The position numbers and the translations under genes were made by a program. The notes below the pieces were generated by a model. The model made no database searches. It was given only the letters and a program-made list of their open reading frames with translations, and was not told the origin of the DNA. Below are positions 342-11,936 of a stretch of DNA of 64,000 bases, piece after piece. The DNA lies in NCBI GenBank assembly GCA_963697335.1, contig CAVONQ010000016.1:65965-129964 (forward strand), written 5' to 3'. This DNA is from an uncultured cyanobacterium (GTDB lineage: Bacteria; Cyanobacteriota; Cyanobacteriia; PCC-6307; Cyanobiaceae). Positions within the stretch are counted from its first letter, which is position 1. Each line of letters starts with the position of its first letter.

Positions 342-1843
<1,502 letters not shown>

Positions 1844-1844
<1 letters not shown>

Positions 1845-4462
1845 TGAGGCCCGCGGCCGCTGGTCGGGCCAAGGGTGGCGCCGGCGTGGATGCCCGGGCC
1901 ATCCGCTGGCGGGTCCGGCGCTTCACCCTCGCCTGGTATCTCGTGGTGACGGGCCTTCTGCTCGGGGCGGCGGGCATCACCTTCTGGAGGTTGCAGCTGA
2001 CCATCCAGGAGTTCGCCGGCCAGCGGGTGACCATGGTTCGGGAGAACCTGGGCAAACAGCTCAAGATCACCGACGAGACCTACCGAAAACTCGCCCTTGC
2101 GGCGATGCGGGTGTTGAAGGCTGATTTTCAGGTCCTGGGAGCGGCCCGGTTGGGATCGGGCAGCGTGCGCAGCGGTGACCAAACCGTGCCGGATCTGCGC
2201 TTTGGTGAGTCGCCGGTGGCCGACCAGGCCGCCCTCGTGGAGGAGGTGTCGGCCCAGCTGGGCGCGACCGCCACCGTGTTCGTGGCCCGCGGCGACCGGT
2301 TCATCCGGGTGGCTACCACGGTGAACGATCAGGAGGGCACCGCCGCCATAGGCACCGACCTGGAGCCGGGCGGTGAGGTCATTGAGGCCCTGCGGCAGGG
2401 CGGGGTGTTCATCGGCGTGGTGGACATTCTCGGAGCGCCCTACTTCTCGGCCTATGAACCGATCCGCGACGGCCAGGGTCGGGTGATCGGCGCCTTCTAC
2501 GCGGGCTACCCCATGGCCTCCCTTTCGGAGATCGGCCGCTCGGTGCGCGATGCCAAGATCCTTGAAAATGGCTTCGTGGCCCTCACCGATTCCCAGGGGG
2601 GCCAGCTGTTTCGCTCCTCGGGCGCCACCGCCGACCTTGTTGAGAGGGTGCTGCGCGAGGTTCCGGCCCCGACGGAAGAATCAGCCATCGGCGGGCTCGA
2701 CGGCTACCGGGTGACCCGCACCCGGTTCGCTCCCTGGGGCTTCGACATCGTGATCGCCCGGTTCAATCCGGACATCGATCAGCTGACCTTAAGGCTCACC
2801 GTCGGGGTGCTCTGGCTGATGGCCGTGGTGATCGCCACCGTGCTGGTGCTCTCCTGGTGGTTCAGCCAGCGGCTCTCCCATGCGCTGATTGCCGGGGAAA
2901 TCGCCAGGCGGCGGGCCGATCTGGAGCGCAGGTCGGCCCGGGCCGCCAAGCGGGTGGCTGACCAGGCCAGCCAAGCCAAGAGTGCCTTCCTGGCCAATAT
3001 GAGCCACGAGCTACGTACGCCGATGAACGCGATCATCGGCTACAGCGAGATGTTGATCGAGGAGGCCGAGGAGATCACCTCTGGCCAGATGGTGCTGGAC
3101 CTTCGAAAAATCCAGGCTGCCGGCAAACATCTTCTGGCCTTGATCAATGGTGTGCTCGATCTCTCCAAGATTGAGGCCGGAAAGATGACCCTCTATCTGG
3201 AAGACTTTGATCTGGCTGAGGCAATCCATGAGGCGGCCACCACGGTGACCCCGCTTCTGAGGGAGCATCAGAATCATTTCGTGCTCGACTGCCCAGATGG
3301 GCTGGGCACGCTGCGATCCGATCGCACCAAGTTTCGCCAGTGTCTTCTCAATCTTCTCAGCAATGCCAGCAAGTTCACGGAACGGGGAGAAATCAGCCTG
3401 CGGGTGATCAACGATCTCGCTGATCACCGCATTCGGGTGGTGGTTCAGGACACCGGCATCGGCATGACTGCCGAGCAGATGGAGCACTTGTTCGAGAGTT
3501 TCAACCAGGCCGACAGCAGCACCACCCGCCGCTACGGCGGAACCGGTCTGGGCCTGGCGATCAGTCGTCAATTCAGTCGGATGATGGGTGGCGACATCAC
3601 GGTGGCCAGTTGTCCCGGCCAGGGCAGTTGCTTCACCCTGACCCTCCCCCGGTCGCTGGAACAGCCCGGGCCCGCTTTGGCAGAGCCGGGCCAGCCGGAG
3701 CCTGGTCCCGCTGATCTGCTGGCCCCCAGGGGTCGGGTGCTGGTGGTCGACGATGACCCCGCTGCCCTAGAACTCGTCAGCCGTTTCCTGGCTCGGGACG
3801 GCTACGCCGTCACCACCACGTCCAGCGGGGATGAGGCGATCGCCCTGGCCCGCCAGATCAAGCCCGATGCCATCACCCTGGACGTGATGATGCCGGGACT
3901 GGATGGCTGGAGCGTGCTGGCGGCTCTTAAGGCCGATCCGGAGCTTGCCGCGGTTCCCGTGGTGATGATGAGCATGTTGGACAACCTCGAGCTCGGCTTT
4001 GCGGCGGGCGCGGCGGAATGCCTGACCAAGCCGGTGGACTGGAGCCGCTTCGAGCGGATCCTCGGCCGCCTGACTCCGGTCGATTCCCAGGCGCCAGCGC
4101 GGGCTCTGGTGGTGGAGGCTGACCCCGCCAGCGCCGACTTGCTCCGCCGCATGCTGGAGAAGGGGGGTTGGGCTGTGGATCAGGCCAGAGATGGGCAGGA
4201 GGCACTGAAGGTGCTGGCCCGCTTCCGCCCGACGGTCATCCTGCTCGATCTGATGATGCCCCGCATGGACGGCCTGGACTTCGTCGAGCGGCTGCGGCGC
4301 AACCCCGCCGCAGCGAGCATCCCTGTGATCGTGATCACAGCCCATACCCTGACGCCCGAGGACCAGGCCCGCCTCAATGGCCGGGTCAGCGATGTGATCA
4401 GCAAGGGATCCCTCAGCGCCGCCGCCCTTTCCGAGCAGATCAATGCGATTCTGGCCAGCTGA
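1844..4462 (+). CDS. Membrane hybrid sensor histidine kinase (TM-Cache-TM-HisKA-HATPase-REC-REC)
   Basis: ATG overlaps pds stop (TGATG). Cache-type segment GATATVFV..RVATTV..YFSAYEPIRDGQGRVIG; H-box FLANMSHELRTPMN; N box NLLSNASKFT; DTGIGM and GGTGLGL boxes; two receivers (LDVMMP, LDLMMP). Confidence 0.93.
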
Positions 4463-4876: not shown

Positions 4877-5922
4877 TGGGGCTTGGCCATCCACCTGCGG
4901 GCTCCGGCCCCCCCGATCCTGCGGGATCCGGAGACCAGTCAATGGCGGAGCTGCGCCATGACCTCATCAACCCGATCAACCAGATCCTCGGCTACAGCGA
5001 ATTGCTCGAGGAGGATGCCCGCGACCGGTACCCCGATGCCGTGGAGGACCTCGGCAAAATCCAGCAGGCAGCCGGCACCCTGCTGAGCCTGCTGCAGACG
5101 CGGCTCGTCGGGGCCCTCGAGAGTCCCGCTGGACCCAACCAGCTCCTTGTTAACCAACTGTTACCCAGCACGCCGCTGCCCGACCAGGAGTCCGGGGGGG
5201 CGGCCCCCCGGACGGGACAGATCCTGGTGGTGGATGACGATGCAGCCAACCTCGAGCTTCTCGCCCTGCGGCTGCAGCGCCAGGGGCATGGCGTCACGTC
5301 CGCGTCCGATGGAGAGGAGGCTCTGGAGCGGCTCCGCCATCACGCCTTCGACCTGCTGCTGCTCGACGTGATGATGCCGCGCCTGGATGGCTACGGCACC
5401 CTGGAGCGCCTGAAGATCCATCCCCAGTGGAGGCACCTGCCGGTGATCATGATCAGTGCTCTCGATGAGCTCTCCAGCGTCGTGCGCTGCATCGAGGCGG
5501 GGGCGGATGACTACCTGGCAAAGCCCTTCAATCCCACGCTGTTGCGCGCCAGGATCGGCGCCTGCCTCGACAAGAAGGCCAGCCGGGATCAGGAAATCGC
5601 CCTTTACAACACTCTGGTGAGAAGCCAGCAACGGCTTCGGGCCGACGTCGATGCCGCTCGCAGCCAGGTCGAGTCTCTGGCTCCGGAGCTGCGCGAAGAT
5701 GCCCGTGTCAGTCCCGTGCTGGCGGCGCTGGCCCGCATGGCCGGCGCGGTCTCCCTACGGGAGAATGACTTACGGGTCACCCTTCAGGAACTGGAGATCA
5801 AGATCAACCGGCAGGCCCTCACCACGCAAGTCAGCTCCATCGTCAGCGACCCTGCCTTCTCGGCACTTTCCGAACGGGCCAGGGCGATGCGGAGCCGCCG
5901 CCGGCCTCAGGGAGGCGACTGA
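4876..5922 (+). CDS. HisKA(DHp)-like + receiver + C-terminal helical tail protein
   Basis: LRHDLINPINQILGYSELL (H-box-like, no ATPase domain); receiver ILVVDDD/LLDVMMP/AKPF; TGATG overlaps at both ends; alternative start at ATG 4942. Confidence 0.88.
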   Translation: MGLGHPPAGSGPPDPAGSGDQSMAELRHDLINPINQILGYSELLEEDARDRYPDAVEDLGKIQQAAGTLLSLLQTRLVGALESPAGPNQLLVNQLLPSTPLPDQESGGAAPRTGQILVVDDDAANLELLALRLQRQGHGVTSASDGEEALERLRHHAFDLLLLDVMMPRLDGYGTLERLKIHPQWRHLPVIMISALDELSSVVRCIEAGADDYLAKPFNPTLLRARIGACLDKKASRDQEIALYNTLVRSQQRLRADVDAARSQVESLAPELREDARVSPVLAALARMAGAVSLRENDLRVTLQELEIKINRQALTTQVSSIVSDPAFSALSERARAMRSRRRPQGGD

Positions 5923-6869
5923 TGGACGCCCTGCTCTGCCACCATGGCCCTCACCACGGTCACCCTGTCGTGCTGCCCAGCCTCGACCAGGCCTACGAGG
6001 ACTGCCGCCAGGAGACCGCCCAGTGGGCCAAGACTTTCTATCTGGGAACCCTGCTGATGCCGACGGCCAAGCGCCGGGCGATCTGGGCGATTTATGTGTG
6101 GTGCCGCCGCACCGATGAACTGATGGACAGCGCCGAGGCCCAGGCGCGTCCCAAGGCGGAACTGGCGGCCCGGCTCGACCACTGGGAAGAGCACACCCGC
6201 GAGTTGTTCGAAGGGGTTGTGCTCGATGGCCTCGATCTGGTCATGCGCGACACCCTGGAGCGCTACCCCCAGCCCCTCCAGGCCTATCTCGACATGATCG
6301 AGGGCCAGCGCATGGATCTGCGTCGGCAGCGCTACCCCAGCTTCGACGACCTGGAGCTCTACTGCTACCGGGTGGCCGGCACGGTGGGATTGATGACACA
6401 GGAAGTCATGGGCCGGGACGCGGCATACACCTCGGCCCCCTGGAGCGACGCCCCAGACACCACCGCAGCGGCGGTAGCCCTTGGCATTGCCAATCAGCTC
6501 ACCAACATCCTGCGGGACGTGGGCGAAGACCGGGCCCGTGGCCGCATCTACCTTCCCCAGGAGGACCTGGCCCGTTTTGATTACGGCGAGGACCAACTTA
6601 TGGCCGGGGTCTTCAATGACAACTGGCGGGCTCTGATGCGCTTTCAGCTGGAGCGGGCCCGCCACTGGTTTGCCCGTGCCGAGGACGGCGTGCGTTGGCT
6701 GGCGCCTGATGCCCGCTGGCCGGTGTGGGCATCGTTGCGGTTGTACCGCGGCATCCTCGATGTGATCGAGCAGCAGAACTACGACGTGTTCAACAAGCGC
6801 GCCTTCGTGCCGAGCAGCGGCAAGCTGCTCGACCTGCCACTGTCATTCGTGGTCGCCCAGGTGCGCTGA
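5922..6869 (+). CDS. crtB: Phytoene synthase
   Basis: WAKTFYLGTLL, RRTDELMD, YCYRVAGTVG, NQLTNILRDVGED. Confidence 0.96.
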   Translation: MDALLCHHGPHHGHPVVLPSLDQAYEDCRQETAQWAKTFYLGTLLMPTAKRRAIWAIYVWCRRTDELMDSAEAQARPKAELAARLDHWEEHTRELFEGVVLDGLDLVMRDTLERYPQPLQAYLDMIEGQRMDLRRQRYPSFDDLELYCYRVAGTVGLMTQEVMGRDAAYTSAPWSDAPDTTAAAVALGIANQLTNILRDVGEDRARGRIYLPQEDLARFDYGEDQLMAGVFNDNWRALMRFQLERARHWFARAEDGVRWLAPDARWPVWASLRLYRGILDVIEQQNYDVFNKRAFVPSSGKLLDLPLSFVVAQVR

Positions 6870-6871
6870 CG

Positions 6872-8434
6872 GTGCCGCGACTTCCCTGGCTACCGCCGTT
6901 GGCCACGGCGCTCCTGATCTGCTGCCTTCCCCCCCTACCCCTACGCGCCGAGTGGGAACCCATCGTGCTCCCCAGCGATCTGGAGGTGGAGGCCCTGGGA
7001 AGTGGGTGGACCGGTGAACTGCCCCGCTCGGACCCGGCGCCGCTGCCGGCGGAGCAGCTCACGTCTCTGTCGATGGATCAGGCGGTTCGCTGGTCGAGCC
7101 AGCGCAATCCGGTGATCCGTTCGGCGTTTCAGAACCTGGTGGCCACCCAAAACAGCCTGGGAGCTCAGTACGCCCGCTGGTGGCCAGTGATCAATGTCTC
7201 GCTCACCGGGGGGCTCTACGGGCAGGATTCGGGTGTCAGCGGCACCAGCCTGAATGGGGGTGGCTTCGGCGGTGGCGGTGGCGGCGGCGGCGGCGGCGGC
7301 GGCAGTTTCGGCCCCGATGGGGGCTATTTCTCCTCGATTGCCCAGGTGGACGCCACCTGGAATCTGATCGACCCCTCCCGGGCACCGGCCATTTGGAAGG
7401 CCAAATATCAGGTGCGCCAGGCCGCCGATGCCTACGTCATCGCCTACCGCGACAACCGTTTGCAGGTGGAGTCGGCGTTCATTGCCCTGCAGGCCGCGGC
7501 GGCTCAGGTGCAGGCCAGCAGGCTGATCGTGGATAACGACGGCCTGCTCCTGCAACTCACGGAGGCCAAGCTCCGCCTTGGGGTAGCCTCGCGGCTCGAT
7601 GTGACCAAGCAGAAAACGGTTCTGTTTGCCGACCAGGTTGACCTTGAGCAGGGTGTCAAGGCGGTCGCGATCGCCCGCAGTCAGCTGGCTGAGTTGCTCA
7701 ACGTGGACCAGCCGGATCTGATCAACCCAGGCGCCGCCCTGGTTCCGCTGGGCGTGTGGCCCCACAGCCTTGATCAAACCGTGGAGGCCAGCCTTGCCTA
7801 CCGCAAGGTGATCCAGCAGAAGCTGCTGGATGTGAAAGTCTTTGAAGCTGATGCCCAGATTGCCCTGGCTGTCTACCAGCCCACGCTTCAGCTGATCAAT
7901 ACTCTTTATTGGAACCGCAATGCCTATTGGACAGAGTCGCTGAGAAGCTATGTGTTCAATCCGTCCTCTGCGTTGACTCTCACCTTCACTGGCTTCGACG
8001 GGGGGCAGGCACGGATGGAGGCAGAGGCCTCCAGGCGGAAGTCGGCGGCCGCTGCCCAGGACTACCTGGCAGCCAGGAATTCTGCGCGACAGGAGGCGCA
8101 GGCCGATTTCGCCAAGGTGGACGTGGGCCGCAAGGTGCTGTTGGCTTCGGCCAATGAAGTGGAGCAGGCCAACAAGGCGATTCGGCTTCAGAGCCTTCGC
8201 TTCAATGCAGGCTATGGCACGATCACCGATGTGGTTCAGGCTCAGTTGAGCCTTGCTCAATCAGTTCTCTCGTTTGTCGAAAATCTTAAGGACTACAATC
8301 AGTCCCTGACCAGTCTGGCCAGAAACACCGGACTTAATTATGTGACTGATTCAGTATTCAGCCGTGATGTGGGTCAGCCTTTGTCGGAATTAGAGCGCCT
8401 GCCCGAGCTATTCGATCGACGCACCGGCGGCTGA
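6872..8434 (+). CDS. TolC family outer membrane protein (accessory paralog) with poly-Gly insert
   Basis: Signal-like N-terminus from GTG 6872; twofold OEP repeat (LRLGVASRLDV / FNAGYGTITDVVQAQ); FDGG motif. Confidence 0.85.
   Translation: MPRLPWLPPLATALLICCLPPLPLRAEWEPIVLPSDLEVEALGSGWTGELPRSDPAPLPAEQLTSLSMDQAVRWSSQRNPVIRSAFQNLVATQNSLGAQYARWWPVINVSLTGGLYGQDSGVSGTSLNGGGFGGGGGGGGGGGGSFGPDGGYFSSIAQVDATWNLIDPSRAPAIWKAKYQVRQAADAYVIAYRDNRLQVESAFIALQAAAAQVQASRLIVDNDGLLLQLTEAKLRLGVASRLDVTKQKTVLFADQVDLEQGVKAVAIARSQLAELLNVDQPDLINPGAALVPLGVWPHSLDQTVEASLAYRKVIQQKLLDVKVFEADAQIALAVYQPTLQLINTLYWNRNAYWTESLRSYVFNPSSALTLTFTGFDGGQARMEAEASRRKSAAAAQDYLAARNSARQEAQADFAKVDVGRKVLLASANEVEQANKAIRLQSLRFNAGYGTITDVVQAQLSLAQSVLSFVENLKDYNQSLTSLARNTGLNYVTDSVFSRDVGQPLSELERLPELFDRRTGG
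7268..7303 (+). repeat. GGY tract encoding 12 Gly, ending in (GGC)8
   Basis: ggc ggt ggc ggt then 8 perfect GGC at 7280-7303. Confidence 0.9.
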
Positions 8435-8469
8435 TCTCTCTCTCAGCGTCTCGAGTCTCACGTTTCGTC

Positions 8470-9908
8470 CTAGGGAGGGTCAAGTGCGCGATTGCGCCGG
8501 GCCCGCATGGCCCGGGCCCGTTGGTTCAGCCGGGTGAAGTTGGGATCCTTGACAATGGAGCATATCTGGCCGTGGAGTTCCTCCTGGTTGATGTCGATTT
8601 CCAGGGTCTTGATCTTGGCGAGCAGGGAGTCTCCCCGGTCAGCTACGGCCAGGGCCATGGAGTTGAACGCCTGCACAAGCCGTCCTAGGGCATCATTGCC
8701 GGCGTAGCTGATGGCCTGGCGGCGTTGGCCGTTGCTGATCGCAGTTGCGGCTGCGGCAAGCTCACGTAGTTGCTGCCGAATGCCTTCAGAAATCCGCCAC
8801 GCCGCCAGTCCGCAGAAGCCGATCAGACCTAGGGTCGCTACCGATAGCTGCACCAGGATCCTGAAGGTGTCTGACTGCAACGGCCTGAGCGATTTCAGTA
8901 GGGCCTTATTGTCGACGCTCATCACACTGATCCAGTCCCAGGCTGGGAAGACAGAGATGAACAGGGTGCGCTCTTCCCCCACCGTCCGGGAGTCGCCGGT
9001 AGCGGCGCTCCGGCGTTCCATCAGGTAGGGATCGCCGCTGCCGGAGACCCTGGGCAGCCCACCGGTGGCCTGGAGATCCTTGATCAGATCCTGGCAGGCG
9101 GCTTGTCCAGGTTGGGAGTAGAGGCAGATGGGCCTGTTCGAGGCCGAAAGGCCAAGGAAGGCCAGTTGATGGTCAGCCTGGGGAACAGGTTTGTGGCCGT
9201 CTCCAGCAGACTGGAGGCTGCATCGGTTCGCACACTCACCGAGAGCACCAGTCGTGCGGGGACCGGGTCGGGGCCCAGGGCCGTCAGCTCGCTGAGGCGC
9301 CATCCGTGATCCTCCCTCACCAGAGTGCTCTGGGTGAGCAGTGTTCCGCTGGGGGTGAGATCCAGGGATTCCAACTGTTTTGCCGTTGTGTCTGGTACCC
9401 GCCAGAGCGTGGGGAGTGTTGTGTTCTTATCTGTGACGCCCGCCAGGCGAAGCCAGCTTTTCCCCTCACGGGTGTAGTAAACAGAGGCGCTCTTGTTGGG
9501 CGTGGCCAGGCCCAGCCTCAGGGCGTTGATGACGACCTGCTCGGCGGCCTCCCTGGAGAGCGGTTGCCCTTTCCAGCGGAACCCGCCGTCAGGATCCATA
9601 CCGAGATCCTGCAGGCTTGCCGCCAGACGCTTGCTGTCATCGGACAGATAGTCTGCGGTCTGATCGGCGCTGCTTTGAATCAATCGGGTGGCGGTCCTTA
9701 CCCGGGTCAGGTTGTCCTGGTCAATCAGCTTGGTGATGTCGTGCCCAGCCTCTCTGGAAAGCCGTAGAGCTGTCATGGAGGAAATCAGAAAGAAGATGGC
9801 CATGCTCACCAGCGGACCGCTGACACCCAGAACGATCAGCCGCGTTGAGAGCCCCATGGCTGGGCGCCGCGCTGGTGTTTCATCCTTGGGCGCTCCTTGA
9901 CGGCTCAT
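8470..9908 (-). pseudogene. Membrane sensor (TM-extracytoplasmic-TM-HAMP-conserved tail), split by a one-base frameshift near 9180
   Basis: ORF 9908-9084 has the first TM; ORF 9303-8470 has the second TM, HAMP (LRELAAAATAISNG..DALGRLVQAFNSMA) and tail. One extra base in the G4 run 9180-9183 joins them as ...NLFPQADHQLAF... Confidence 0.75.
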
Positions 9909-9982: not shown

Positions 9983-10753
9983 ATGGTGATGCCTAAAATC
10001 ATCTCAGTCCACTCTTTCCGTGGTGGTACTGGAAAGTCTAATCTGACTGCAAATCTTGCCTTCGCTTTCGCGATGCAGGGCAAGAAAGTTGCCGTCTTTG
10101 ATACCGATCTTGCCTCGCCAGGGATCCACGTTCTGTTTGGATTCTCGGTTCAGCCTGGCCAGACCACACTGAATGACCATCTGCAGGGATCGGCTCCGAT
10201 CAAGGACTGTGCCTACAATGTAACGCCAGAACAGGCTAAGTCCTCCCGCGGCCGGATCTGGTTGGTGCCAGCGTCCATGGAGAGCGACCGCATTGCCCGA
10301 TTGCTGCGGGAGGGATATCAGGTTGAGCGCCTGAATGACGCCCTCTTTGCTCTCGCAGAAACCCTTGGGCTCGATCTCGTGCTGATCGATACCCACCCCG
10401 GGATCAACGAGGAAACCCTCCTTTCTGCGGCCATCTCCGATGTCCTTGTCATCGTGATGCGTCCCGATTCCCAGGACTATCTCGGTACGGCGGTGGCGAT
10501 TGAAGTGGCGGAAAGGCTGGAGGTGCCCGCCATTCGTATGGTGGTCAACAAGGTGCCCAGTCATTTCGACCCAGATCAGGTGCGCGAACGGGTGGCCCGC
10601 AGTTACGGCGTTCCTATCGGGGCCTCCCTCCCCCTCAGCGAAGACCTGCTCACCATTGCCAGCGGCAGCCTGGCCCTGGTGGACGTTCCTGGCCACCCGT
10701 GGAGCGCCGGCGTGACCCAGCTCGCCACCGACCTGGCCGATGTGCTGCGCTGA
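9983..10753 (+). CDS. MinD/ParA family ATPase
   Basis: Deviant Walker A SFRGGTGKS, DTDLASPG, LIDTHPG, VVNKVP; purine-rich RBS upstream. Confidence 0.92.
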   Translation: MVMPKIISVHSFRGGTGKSNLTANLAFAFAMQGKKVAVFDTDLASPGIHVLFGFSVQPGQTTLNDHLQGSAPIKDCAYNVTPEQAKSSRGRIWLVPASMESDRIARLLREGYQVERLNDALFALAETLGLDLVLIDTHPGINEETLLSAAISDVLVIVMRPDSQDYLGTAVAIEVAERLEVPAIRMVVNKVPSHFDPDQVRERVARSYGVPIGASLPLSEDLLTIASGSLALVDVPGHPWSAGVTQLATDLADVLR

Positions 10754-11936
10754 TGCTCCAGGCCCCCCAGGGGATCCGGGGGGCAGGCCCGCCCAGGTCG
10801 CGTTGCCGGAGGGGCCCCTCTCCATGAGCCTGCTGCTGGCGGTGGAGCCTGTGACACTCCGACGGCTGCTCCGCCTCGGACTGCGGACCGGTCTGGAGGA
10901 AGGGGAGTTTGATCAGCTCTGCAGCGCCAGCGCCGACGCCATGGGCATGGCCCCGGCAGCCCTGCGTGAGGGCTTCAGGCACGGGGGTGGCTCGGCTGGG
11001 ACCCCGGCCGCGACCGCTGGCGGACGCGTCTAGGCGCCCCCTTCGCCCCGCCGCCTCAGGATTGTCCGGCCGCTGAGCGCGGTCCTGCAGCAGTGGGTTC
11101 ACCTGCTCCGGTGCCTCATCGTGGGGGCAATGGCCCAGCCCCGGCAGTTCATGCAGGCGGCGCACGCAGGCGAAGCGCTGCCAGCGGCGGGCTTCGGCCA
11201 CGGGTTCCCAGGGATCTGCCTGGCCGCAGATCAGGGTCACGGGCGTGGCCAGCTCGCCGAGCAGGTCCGGGGCCAGGTAGTCATCGAAGAGATTCACGAA
11301 GCCGCGGAAGGCCTCGCTGGCGCCGGGCTGCTGGGCGGGGGTGAGCAGCAATTCCACCAGCTGCTCATCCACGTTGCGGCCGCTGGGATAGGCCTGGAGC
11401 AGCACCCGGCGGATCGCCTGCGGGCGGGCGAAGGAGCGGAACAGCAACTGGGTCAGCCAGCGTTGGCGCACCACGCTCTTGAGCGCTGGGCGCAGGCGGC
11501 GCAGCCCTGCGGGCTGGTCAACCAGGCGCTTGTCATCGAGGGCTCGCTGGGCGCAGTCCACAAGCACCACGCCGAGGGCGGGATGGCCGCTGCGCTCCAG
11601 CTTGGCAGCGGCCGCCAAGGCCACGACGCCGCCGATGGAGTTCCCCACCAGCTGCACCGTCTCCAGCTGCTGGGAGGCGATGAACGCCACCACCTGATCG
11701 GCCCAGAGCTCCATGCCGTAGTGCAGGCAGCCCGGCAGGTCGGGTTCGTCCCGCAGGCGGGAGCGGGGCTTGTCGCTGGCCCCGAAACCGATCAGGTCAA
11801 GGGCATAGACGGGCCGCTGCTGCCGAAGCGCCTCCACGGTGTGGCGCCAGTGTTCCTTGCAGGCCCCGAAGCCGTGGATCATCAGCACGGGAGCCCCGGG
11901 GGTGGCGGTCAGGGCCGGTGCGGCCAGATACGCCAT
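10650..11936 (-). CDS. Alpha/beta fold hydrolase (family-like sequence ends ~11085; the rest of the ORF is probably spurious)
   Basis: IHGFGA, DLIGFG, GNSIGG nucleophile elbow, GHCPHDE. Confidence 0.88.
   Translation of the reverse strand: MAYLAAPALTATPGAPVLMIHGFGACKEHWRHTVEALRQQRPVYALDLIGFGASDKPRSRLRDEPDLPGCLHYGMELWADQVVAFIASQQLETVQLVGNSIGGVVALAAAAKLERSGHPALGVVLVDCAQRALDDKRLVDQPAGLRRLRPALKSVVRQRWLTQLLFRSFARPQAIRRVLLQAYPSGRNVDEQLVELLLTPAQQPGASEAFRGFVNLFDDYLAPDLLGELATPVTLICGQADPWEPVAEARRWQRFACVRRLHELPGLGHCPHDEAPEQVNPLLQDRAQRPDNPEAAGRRGRLDASASGRGRGPSRATPVPEALTQGCRGHAHGVGAGAAELIKLPFLQTGPQSEAEQPSECHRLHRQQQAHGEGPLRQRDLGGPAPRIPWGAWSISAAHRPGRWRAGSRRRSTGGQERPPGPGCRWQW
10824..11033 (+). CDS. Small probable winged-helix protein, apparently frameshifted near 10970
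   Basis: MSLLLAVEPVTLRRLLRLGLRTGL..AALREG; the -1 frame continues LQARGWLGWDPGRDRWRTRLG, which resembles a wing. Confidence 0.5.
   Translation: MSLLLAVEPVTLRRLLRLGLRTGLEEGEFDQLCSASADAMGMAPAALREGFRHGGGSAGTPAATAGGRV

Follow-up and report, generated by a model that had tools for sequence, protein, structure and literature searches.

A predicted C-terminal helical hairpin module of bacterial sensor proteins and its genomic coupling to a subfamily of MinD/ParA-like ATPases

A 64,000-nucleotide stretch of the genome of an uncultured cyanobacterium of the family Cyanobiaceae (GenBank assembly GCA_963697335.1, contig CAVONQ010000016.1, positions 65,965 to 129,964; hereafter the window) encodes two signalling proteins, one with a receiver (REC) domain and one with a HAMP domain, that end in the same segment of about 60 residues, here called the tail. 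Related tails end otherwise different sensor proteins in Cyanobacteria and Chloroflexota, and they occur together with one subfamily of MinD/ParA-like P-loop ATPases, a member of which is encoded beside the HAMP gene of the window. On this genomic evidence we propose, with a probability of roughly 60%, that sensor domains of various kinds are coupled by the tail to a single, dedicated subfamily of MinD/FlhG-like P-loop ATPases. That tail and ATPase subfamily are functionally linked appears likely, and a direct contact between the two is more likely than not.

Results

When the entire REC protein was compared with the entire HAMP protein by BLASTP, a single matching segment was returned (25/57 identical, no gaps, E 6e-8); outside the tail the two proteins share no similarity. 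Translation of 5737-5904 (+) and 8491-8658 (-) reproduced exactly the two peptides from which an earlier note on this DNA, the original prediction, had concluded that both proteins end in a common segment of 55 residues. Its hand count of 28/55 identities agrees with the 28 invariant columns of a gap-free two-row alignment over this span. The 55 residues are indeed shared, but the conserved unit begins about 5 residues earlier and comprises about 60 residues in total. A search of the whole 2.58-Mb source genome found two copies of the tail, those of the window (Table 1).

Alignments of 19 and then of 92 tails defined about 60 columns, which provide the numbering used here for the module. The consensus reads F-x2-M-x3-V-x2-RE-x2-L-x3-V-x2-L-x-I-x-I-D-x7-V-x2-I-x5-F-x2-L-x3-A-x3-R. 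In the 92 tails, positions M6, R13, E14, L17, L24, I26, I28, V37, I40, F46, L49, A53 and R57 are near-invariant, and F46 is kept in every one. Position 29 is Asp in 80 tails and Asn in 9, and position 57 is Lys or Arg in 92/92. The original prediction supposed an Arg-rich helix, and the final helix is indeed basic: over the last 12 columns the median is five Lys or Arg residues, with at least three in 91 of the 92 tails.

An AlphaFold2 (AF2) model of the tail, computed from the 19-row alignment, has a predicted local distance difference test score (pLDDT) of 93.8 and contains a helix from residue 2 to 41, a two-residue turn and a helix from 44 to 60. The tail is thus predicted to be a helical hairpin, in which one long helix is followed by a turn and a short basic helix folding back. 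The 'LEIxIN' stretch, part of the core noticed originally, lies within the continuous helix 2-41. A ribbon-helix-helix DNA-binding domain was considered and rejected, the AF2 model being without a strand. No Pfam or NCBIfam family matched the tail, and the tail alone gave no match to HAMP (PF00672) at E <= 1. In the product of the C-terminal HAMP open reading frame (ORF; P0004) the module begins at residue 211 and the HAMP match extends to 218, so that the overlap is limited to the end of the second amphipathic helix (AS2) of HAMP. When non-HAMP architectures were scored with relaxed cut-offs, P0093 (E 0.055) and P0070 (E 8e-6) gave a weak HAMP score and the other nine proteins gave none. Foldseek found no match of the tail model in the PDB at E <= 10, and a profile search of PDB sequences yielded chance-level coiled-coil matches alone (best E 0.063). 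The nearest clusters in the ESM Atlas, which we take as a lead only, are annotated 'hypothetical protein', have no Pfam 38.1 family and come from Cyanobacteriota and Chloroflexota. A literature search, with subscription journals outside its coverage, found nothing on the tail module or on a pairing of sensors with MinD/ParA proteins.

A profile of the 19 tails was searched against 1.84 billion representative proteins and matched 1945 cluster representatives at E <= 1e-3, 508 of them at E <= 1e-10. The similarity is hence not limited to this genome, as a recent duplication would have implied. Among the 150 matches listed, the tail ends at most about 30 residues from the C-terminus in nearly all, the exceptions being P0102, P0073, P0116 and P0030. 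Pfam was run on 102 of these 150 proteins, the 48 shortest, mostly fragments, being left out. HAMP was found in 74 proteins, some with dCache_1, Tll0287-like, 4HB_MCP or ECF-ribofla_trS-like membrane parts; cyclic nucleotide-binding domains (cNMP_binding) in 6; REC in 5, of which 4 also have HisKA; and GAF in 4. One GAF and one REC protein carry HAMP as well, three more proteins have Cache or ECF-type parts alone, and 12 match no family. A further architecture, Cache-HAMP-PAS-tail, occurs in picocyanobacteria. In the 102 proteins no kinase ATPase, cyclase, GGDEF/EAL, PP2C or DNA-binding family was matched at E <= 1e-4, and no Pfam domain was detected downstream of the tail. A genome scan with one conserved tail pattern gave 355 relatives, from which 80 loci were kept; the five-row query alignment biases this set towards one HAMP-tail orthologue group. 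Wherever a lineage is given for these loci it is Cyanobacteria or Chloroflexota, and two are titled 'uncultured bacterium'.

The catalogue of architectures that had been suggested as a check, obtained here by profile search and Pfam, places HAMP, cNMP, GAF, PAS and HisKA plus REC before the tail. The notion of a modular output domain is borne out by a segment that ends proteins of at least five sensor architectures in a family of this size. It is well supported that the tail is a C-terminal output module of about 60 residues without an existing name.

The ATPase gene of the window is transcribed divergently from the HAMP-tail gene. Its product matches Pfam CbiA, ParA and AAA_31 and, judged by its sequence, is a member of the wider MinD/ParA superfamily. 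The assignment as MinD proper was rejected (TIGR01969, 87.9 against a cut-off of 201.75; TIGR01968, 41.3 against 212.9). It is the sole member of its subfamily in the genome, scoring 360 bits compared to at most 52 for the other MinD/ParA genes. The position of the signature Lys of the deviant Walker A motif is occupied by a near-invariant Arg (R13 of the ATPase; 'SFRGGTGKS', aligned to 'SGKGGTGKT' of 1hyq), and Lys18/Ser19 of the Walker A motif, D40 and D136 are conserved. Archaeal MinD-1 (1hyq), Aquifex MinD and FleN/FlhG are the nearest relatives in sequence with solved structures.

In picocyanobacteria an orthologue of the ATPase adjoins the tail gene in 22/22 HAMP-type loci (L004-L020, L022-L026), in 11/11 cNMP-type loci (L033-L042, L044) and in both Cache-HAMP-type loci (L043, L046). 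No orthologue adjoins the spurious GGDEF match L045. Genomes that have only the REC-tail gene retain the ATPase in the same locus; in the window the ATPase is 4.1 kb away from the REC-tail gene. Among the 80 loci, MinD/ParA-like ATPases, to which the ATPase of the window is about 50% identical, are neighbours in 53, often as two or three paralogues. The parts that are constant over all locus types are a tail-bearing sensor and the ATPase, nothing else.

The association was also seen when genomes were scored irrespective of gene order. In an order sample of 201 genomes the tail was found in 41 and the ATPase subfamily in 41, with 39 genomes containing both, two the tail only and two the ATPase only. 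Both tail-only cases are chance-level matches (E 0.004-0.007), one of them a GGDEF protein, and both ATPase-only genomes carry a divergent Cache-HAMP-PAS tail beside the ATPase, recovered by an unfiltered search (E ~1e-6). A phylum sample of 301 genomes contained the tail in 48 and the ATPase in 51 (both 46, tail only 2, ATPase only 5, neither 248). In a second phylum, that of a Chloroflexia metagenome-assembled genome (MAG), 151 genomes gave 29 with the tail and 27 with the ATPase (both 27, tail only 2, ATPase only 0).

A quick maximum-likelihood tree of 72 ATPases, the careful search of which is unfinished, placed the picocyanobacterial ATPases in four well-supported clades, each matching the architecture of the neighbouring tail protein; long branches make the placement of other rows unsure. 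Support in the Shimodaira-Hasegawa-like approximate likelihood-ratio test (SH-aLRT) was 100 for the clade with HAMP/REC neighbours (7 rows), 100 for cNMP (7 rows), 98 for Cache-HAMP (2 rows) and 99 for Cache-HAMP-PAS (2 rows). Adjacency, near-complete co-occurrence in two phyla and architecture-specific clades together lend strong indirect support to an ATPase-related role of the tail. The fusion of a winged-helix domain to the ATPase in L057 and to the tail sensor P0102, and the basic final helix of the tail, also favour the pairing.

Of the two sensors in the window, the REC-tail protein consists of a hairpin of the dimerisation and histidine phosphotransfer (DHp)/HisKA type, a disordered linker, REC, long helices and the tail. 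Response_reg (PF00072) is matched with 105.3 bits at residues 116-227 (cut-off 30.2). HisKA reaches 26.2 bits at residues 23-74, just below its cut-off of 26.9, which the orthologues P0026 and P0070 exceed with about 40 bits. H28 of the H-box, D120/D121, D164 and K216 are invariant in the alignment of REC-tail proteins, the latter three sites in 11 orthologues. The protein has the REC fold, phospho-acceptor Asp and conserved Lys of a response-regulator receiver, and Pfam detects no kinase ATPase domain in it. Its AF2 model (mean pLDDT 75.9) comprises the DHp hairpin, REC, a helix at 220-266, a connector and helices at 279-324 and 326-342; helix 5 of REC extends to residue 266.

The HAMP protein of the original prediction is a real HAMP sensor with a tail, but in this assembly its gene is broken into two ORFs, an N-terminal one at 9084-9908 (-) and a C-terminal one at 8470-9303 (-). 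The Pfam HAMP match covers residues 176-218 of the latter product (window positions 8650-8778). Relatives P0007 and P0008 encode the sensor as one protein of 462-475 residues. The frameshift corresponds to one base missing in a C-run near 9179 (- strand). Contigs from 4/4 public runs, belonging to four studies, contain an extra base at about 9179 that restores a single frame; elsewhere the gene is thus unbroken, and the frameshift here reflects either a fault of the assembly or a change specific to the strain. A blastn comparison of the frameshift region with L004 gave no match, this relative being too divergent. Translation likely starts at the second Met, near 9857.

Discussion

From the genomic coupling we infer a contact between tail and ATPase, a direction of control and a downstream effect, as follows. 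The tail would be the partner segment of the ATPase subfamily, placed under the control of sensor domains. Its long helix would continue AS2 of HAMP, or a HAMP-like helix after REC, cNMP, GAF or PAS. A signal, be it phosphorylation, ligand binding or HAMP rotation, would shift the hairpin tip, presumably dimeric, in register or exposure, and the altered tip would control binding of the ATPase and through it the ATP/dimer cycle or the location of the ATPase. In the window two inputs, a phosphorelay and a transmembrane HAMP sensor, would converge on the single ATPase: the hybrid kinase encoded upstream would phosphorylate the DHp-REC-tail protein, and the HAMP sensor would pass on a signal from outside the cytoplasm. 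The ATPase might then act on variable downstream parts of the locus, a TolC-like paralogue in the window and elsewhere a 290-residue membrane protein, an MFS/TLC-like membrane protein or a MarR-like winged-helix domain. The tail may recruit, sequester or activate the ATPase, and Arg-dependent activation, as the original prediction envisaged, is only one among several possibilities.

Several observations weigh against this proposal. Three divergent Cache-HAMP-PAS tails, outside the 92-row alignment, end acidic and without the basic end, so that an Arg-based activation mechanism cannot be universal. One of the tail-only genomes of the second phylum, G576, has a strong tail match (the other match is partial), and the five ATPase-only and two tail-only genomes of the phylum sample break the pairing as well. 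Incomplete MAGs, and a ceiling on the number of candidates scored per search, may explain such singletons. Adjacency is incomplete, with 45 of 71 tail matches in the phylum sample lying within 10 kb of an ATPase match. Because related genomes do not count as independent, there are fewer independent events than the co-occurrence counts suggest, and these are given here as counts without a probability. Furthermore, TolC-like and membrane protein genes travel with the tail-ATPase pair and could encode the true contact. Finally, the tail departs in position and order from the segments by which known partners engage such ATPases, as discussed below.

The tail could be a structural cap or dimerisation tip of a HAMP-type coiled coil, with signalling through other surfaces and the ATPase linked to it by shared operons alone. 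AF2 predicts a plain helical hairpin, two copies of which could make a four-helix bundle, and the conserved hydrophobic residues L17, V21, L24, I28, V37, I40, F46, L49 and A53 suit a packing core. A mere cap does not, however, require the polar residues R13, E14, D29 and R57, which are conserved in 80-92 of the 92 tails. Moreover, the tail is the sole element common to the HAMP, cNMP, GAF, PAS and REC proteins found beside the ATPase, and its co-occurrence with the ATPase persists without gene adjacency: 10 of the 46 genomes of the phylum sample that contain both have no pair within 10 kb. We consider a role as a cap alone unlikely.

It is also improbable that the tail binds another partner encoded in the locus, such as a membrane/transport or winged-helix protein, with the ATPase acting at another point of that pathway. 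Candidates exist. An MFS/TLC-like membrane protein is present in 65/80 loci, compared to 53/80 for the ATPase. In 11/11 cNMP-type loci the gene of a membrane protein of 284-299 residues, unmatched in Pfam, immediately follows that of the ATPase and lies between it and the cNMP-tail gene, which it faces; it often overlaps the ATPase stop (e.g. L037:2094-2948). A high-scoring orthologue of the TolC-like protein (E <= 1e-106) was detected in 30/201 genomes, exactly the 30 with a type-I ATPase (>=65% identity), and the general TolC paralogue, of about 30% identity, in 154/201. A MarR-like winged helix accompanies the ATPases in the 80-locus set, as a fusion or as a separate gene of about 110 residues. 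It is fused to the C-terminal end of the ATPase in L057 (1679-2806) and to that of the sensor-HAMP-tail protein P0102 (522 residues), in the latter case behind a long disordered linker. These candidates nevertheless vary with the type of locus and none is universal, whereas the ATPase subfamily is present with every locus type. With the queries used, the source genome yielded neither the winged helix nor the MFS/TLC-like protein.

The basic C-terminal helix, with its excess of Lys and Arg in nearly every tail, might itself be the output and bind DNA, RNA or the membrane. This is quite doubtful, as the divergent tails beside the same ATPase end acidic, no DNA-binding family or fold was matched, and the module is found on membrane-anchored and soluble sensors alike. 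That the tails are leftover signalling-helix linkers of sensors from which a catalytic domain (PP2C or GGDEF, for example) has been lost, as the JGI name 'RsbU' of two REC-tail homologues and a partial NCBIfam SiaA (HAMP-PP2C) match over the HAMP region might suggest, is already contradicted by 1945 clusters with their own conserved signature, by the absence of a downstream domain from all 102 scanned proteins, and by the extent of the SiaA match, which covers residues 105-233 and takes in only about the first 23 residues of the module but not its conserved core.

Coupling of sensors to the ATPase through the tail, the reading we prefer, can be compared with known partner proteins of ParA/MinD ATPases. 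As in the MinE-MinD, ParB-ParA and McdB-McdA systems, the concept of which is summarised in PMC10241942, the tail gene lies beside that of a candidate cognate deviant-Walker-A ATPase, with which it co-occurs, carries a positively charged stretch and shows one partner per ATPase paralogue. Known partners use a disordered, positively charged N-terminus according to the same text, whereas the tail is C-terminal, about 60 residues long and predicted to fold into two helices with high confidence. The likeness to the short basic segments of MinE and ParB that had been drawn originally does not extend to this form. As far as that source goes, known partners link the ATPase to a positioned cargo; the tail in contrast sits on the signal-sensing domains HAMP, REC, cNMP, GAF and PAS. 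Many ParA/MinD ATPases are still 'orphans' whose partner is not known (PMC10241942).

Further likenesses are found among signalling proteins, and a resemblance of the tail core L-x-I-E-I-D to the 'EIDAL' motif of FliM is a lead only. In PpfA-TlpT and FlhG-FliM/FliY, signalling or motor-switch proteins engage a MinD/ParA-type ATPase via a short motif, for FliM the one just named; such motifs lie at the N-terminus of components of chemotaxis or flagellar systems. The loci examined showed no genes for chemotaxis or flagella. Like the signalling domain of methyl-accepting chemotaxis proteins (MCPs), the tail continues AS2 of HAMP, its first ~10 residues overlapping the Pfam HAMP match, and its hairpin could be a dimeric contact tip comparable to the CheA/CheW-binding tip. 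Unlike that domain it is far shorter, has no MCPsignal match and also follows non-HAMP sensors. Signalling helices (S-helices) are coiled coils that follow a sensor domain and join it to a downstream catalytic domain. The tail, too, is a coiled-coil segment directly after HAMP, GAF, PAS or REC, but it is terminal, with a return helix and a sequence signature of its own. Assignment as a signalling helix or inter-domain linker, left over from truncated proteins, was rejected on account of this C-terminal position in nearly all of the 150 matches listed and the absence of Pfam domains downstream in the 102 proteins scanned.

Thousands of proteins of Cyanobacteria and Chloroflexota annotated as 'HAMP domain-containing', 'cyclic nucleotide-binding' or 'response regulator' have no recognisable output and are dead ends in signalling censuses. 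The tail supplies such sensors with a common output module and a concrete candidate partner, and a large group of orphan MinD/ParA ATPases gains a candidate partner protein, which would differ in kind from those known by being C-terminal, folded and regulated by signals. The pairing suggests an undescribed route by which bacterial sensors may pass a signal onward. Tentatively, it could amount to a third wiring scheme of prokaryotic signal transduction, in which classical sensor domains (HAMP, REC, cNMP, GAF, PAS), lacking any enzyme or DNA-binding output, signal via a 60-residue hairpin tip to a dedicated MinD-type ATPase as the equivalent of a response regulator. The ATPase would in that scheme be an ATP-driven dimer switch controlling a winged-helix DNA binder or membrane transport/export proteins, and in picocyanobacteria a phosphorelay and a transmembrane sensor would converge on one switch beside carotenoid genes. 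The module may regulate these carotenoid genes.

Gene neighbourhoods

The features of the window are listed in Table 1. The hybrid histidine kinase gene, whose true start is probably near 1900, always immediately precedes the REC-tail gene in L127, L128, L129 and L131 and is absent where the REC-tail gene is absent (L130, L132). The kinase is likely the phosphodonor of the REC-tail protein. The relatives share a constant locus, pds-[hybrid kinase-REC-tail]-crtB-TolC-like-[HAMP-tail]-ATPase, that across genomes holds the REC-tail gene alone, the HAMP-tail gene alone or, as in the window, both. The hybrid kinase and REC-tail genes stand between pds and crtB here, and pds and crtB are adjacent in the two relatives without the REC-tail gene. 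The stop of the REC-tail gene overlaps the start of crtB at 5922. The TolC-like gene, which belongs to the conserved type-I locus, probably starts near 6950, and its product contains a run of about 13 glycines ('GGGFGGGGGGGGGGGGSFG') in the first third.

Table 1. Position, strand and basis of assignment of the features discussed, in window coordinates
Feature	Position	Strand	Basis
pds	405-1844		
Hybrid histidine kinase, Cache-HisKA-HATPase-REC-REC	1655..4462	+	Pfam
HisKA(DHp)-REC-tail protein (P0003), 348 aa	4876..5922	+	Pfam, alignment, AF2
Tail module copy 1, 61 aa, C-terminal end of REC protein	5722..5904	+	Alignments
crtB	5922-6869		
TolC/OEP-like outer-membrane protein paralogue	6725..8434	+	Pfam OEP, 127.7 bits
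Membrane sensor-HAMP-tail gene, split by 1-base frameshift	8470..9908	-	ORFs, relatives, Pfam
Tail module copy 2, 61 aa, C-terminal end of HAMP sensor	8491..8673	-	Alignments, BLASTP
MinD/ParA-like P-loop ATPase, 256 aa, Walker A 'FRGGTGKS', proposed tail partner	9983..10753	+	Pfam, adjacency, co-occurrence
Alpha/beta-hydrolase ORF	10650-11936	-	Pfam
Small ORF	10740-11033	+	

Neighbour counts were obtained by clustering all ORFs of the 80 loci from Cyanobacteria and Chloroflexota. Besides the MFS/TLC-like proteins and the ATPases, they comprise an ATP-grasp protein of unassigned kind (23 loci), a radical-SAM aminomutase-like protein (21), cNMP-GAF-PP2C (19), a Ddl-like ligase (17), SET (13), adenylate cyclase (11), PrsW (9) and an RsbW-like protein (8). 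In L047-L126, from filamentous cyanobacteria and Chloroflexota, a recurring set of enzymes surrounds the HAMP-tail gene: a 441-residue ATP-grasp protein, a radical-SAM aminomutase-like protein, a D-Ala-D-Ala-ligase-like ATP-grasp protein, a SET-domain protein, a 263-residue protein and the MFS/TLC-like protein. These enzymes look like a small-molecule or peptide-modification pathway under the sensor-ATPase pair. The tail is also found at the end of some proteins of the cNMP-GAF cluster from these loci (L113:191-2212, L107, L119, L125, L126), so that one locus can hold two to three tail sensors and two to three ATPase paralogues.

Downstream of the ATPase in the window, the small ORF matches no family and has no relatives in the loci, and is probably not a gene. 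The alpha/beta-hydrolase ORF, which overlaps it on the opposite strand, continues for about 150 residues past the Pfam domain. As neither this extension nor the small ORF has relatives, the hydrolase probably ends before the end of its ORF. High G+C content keeps the frames open.

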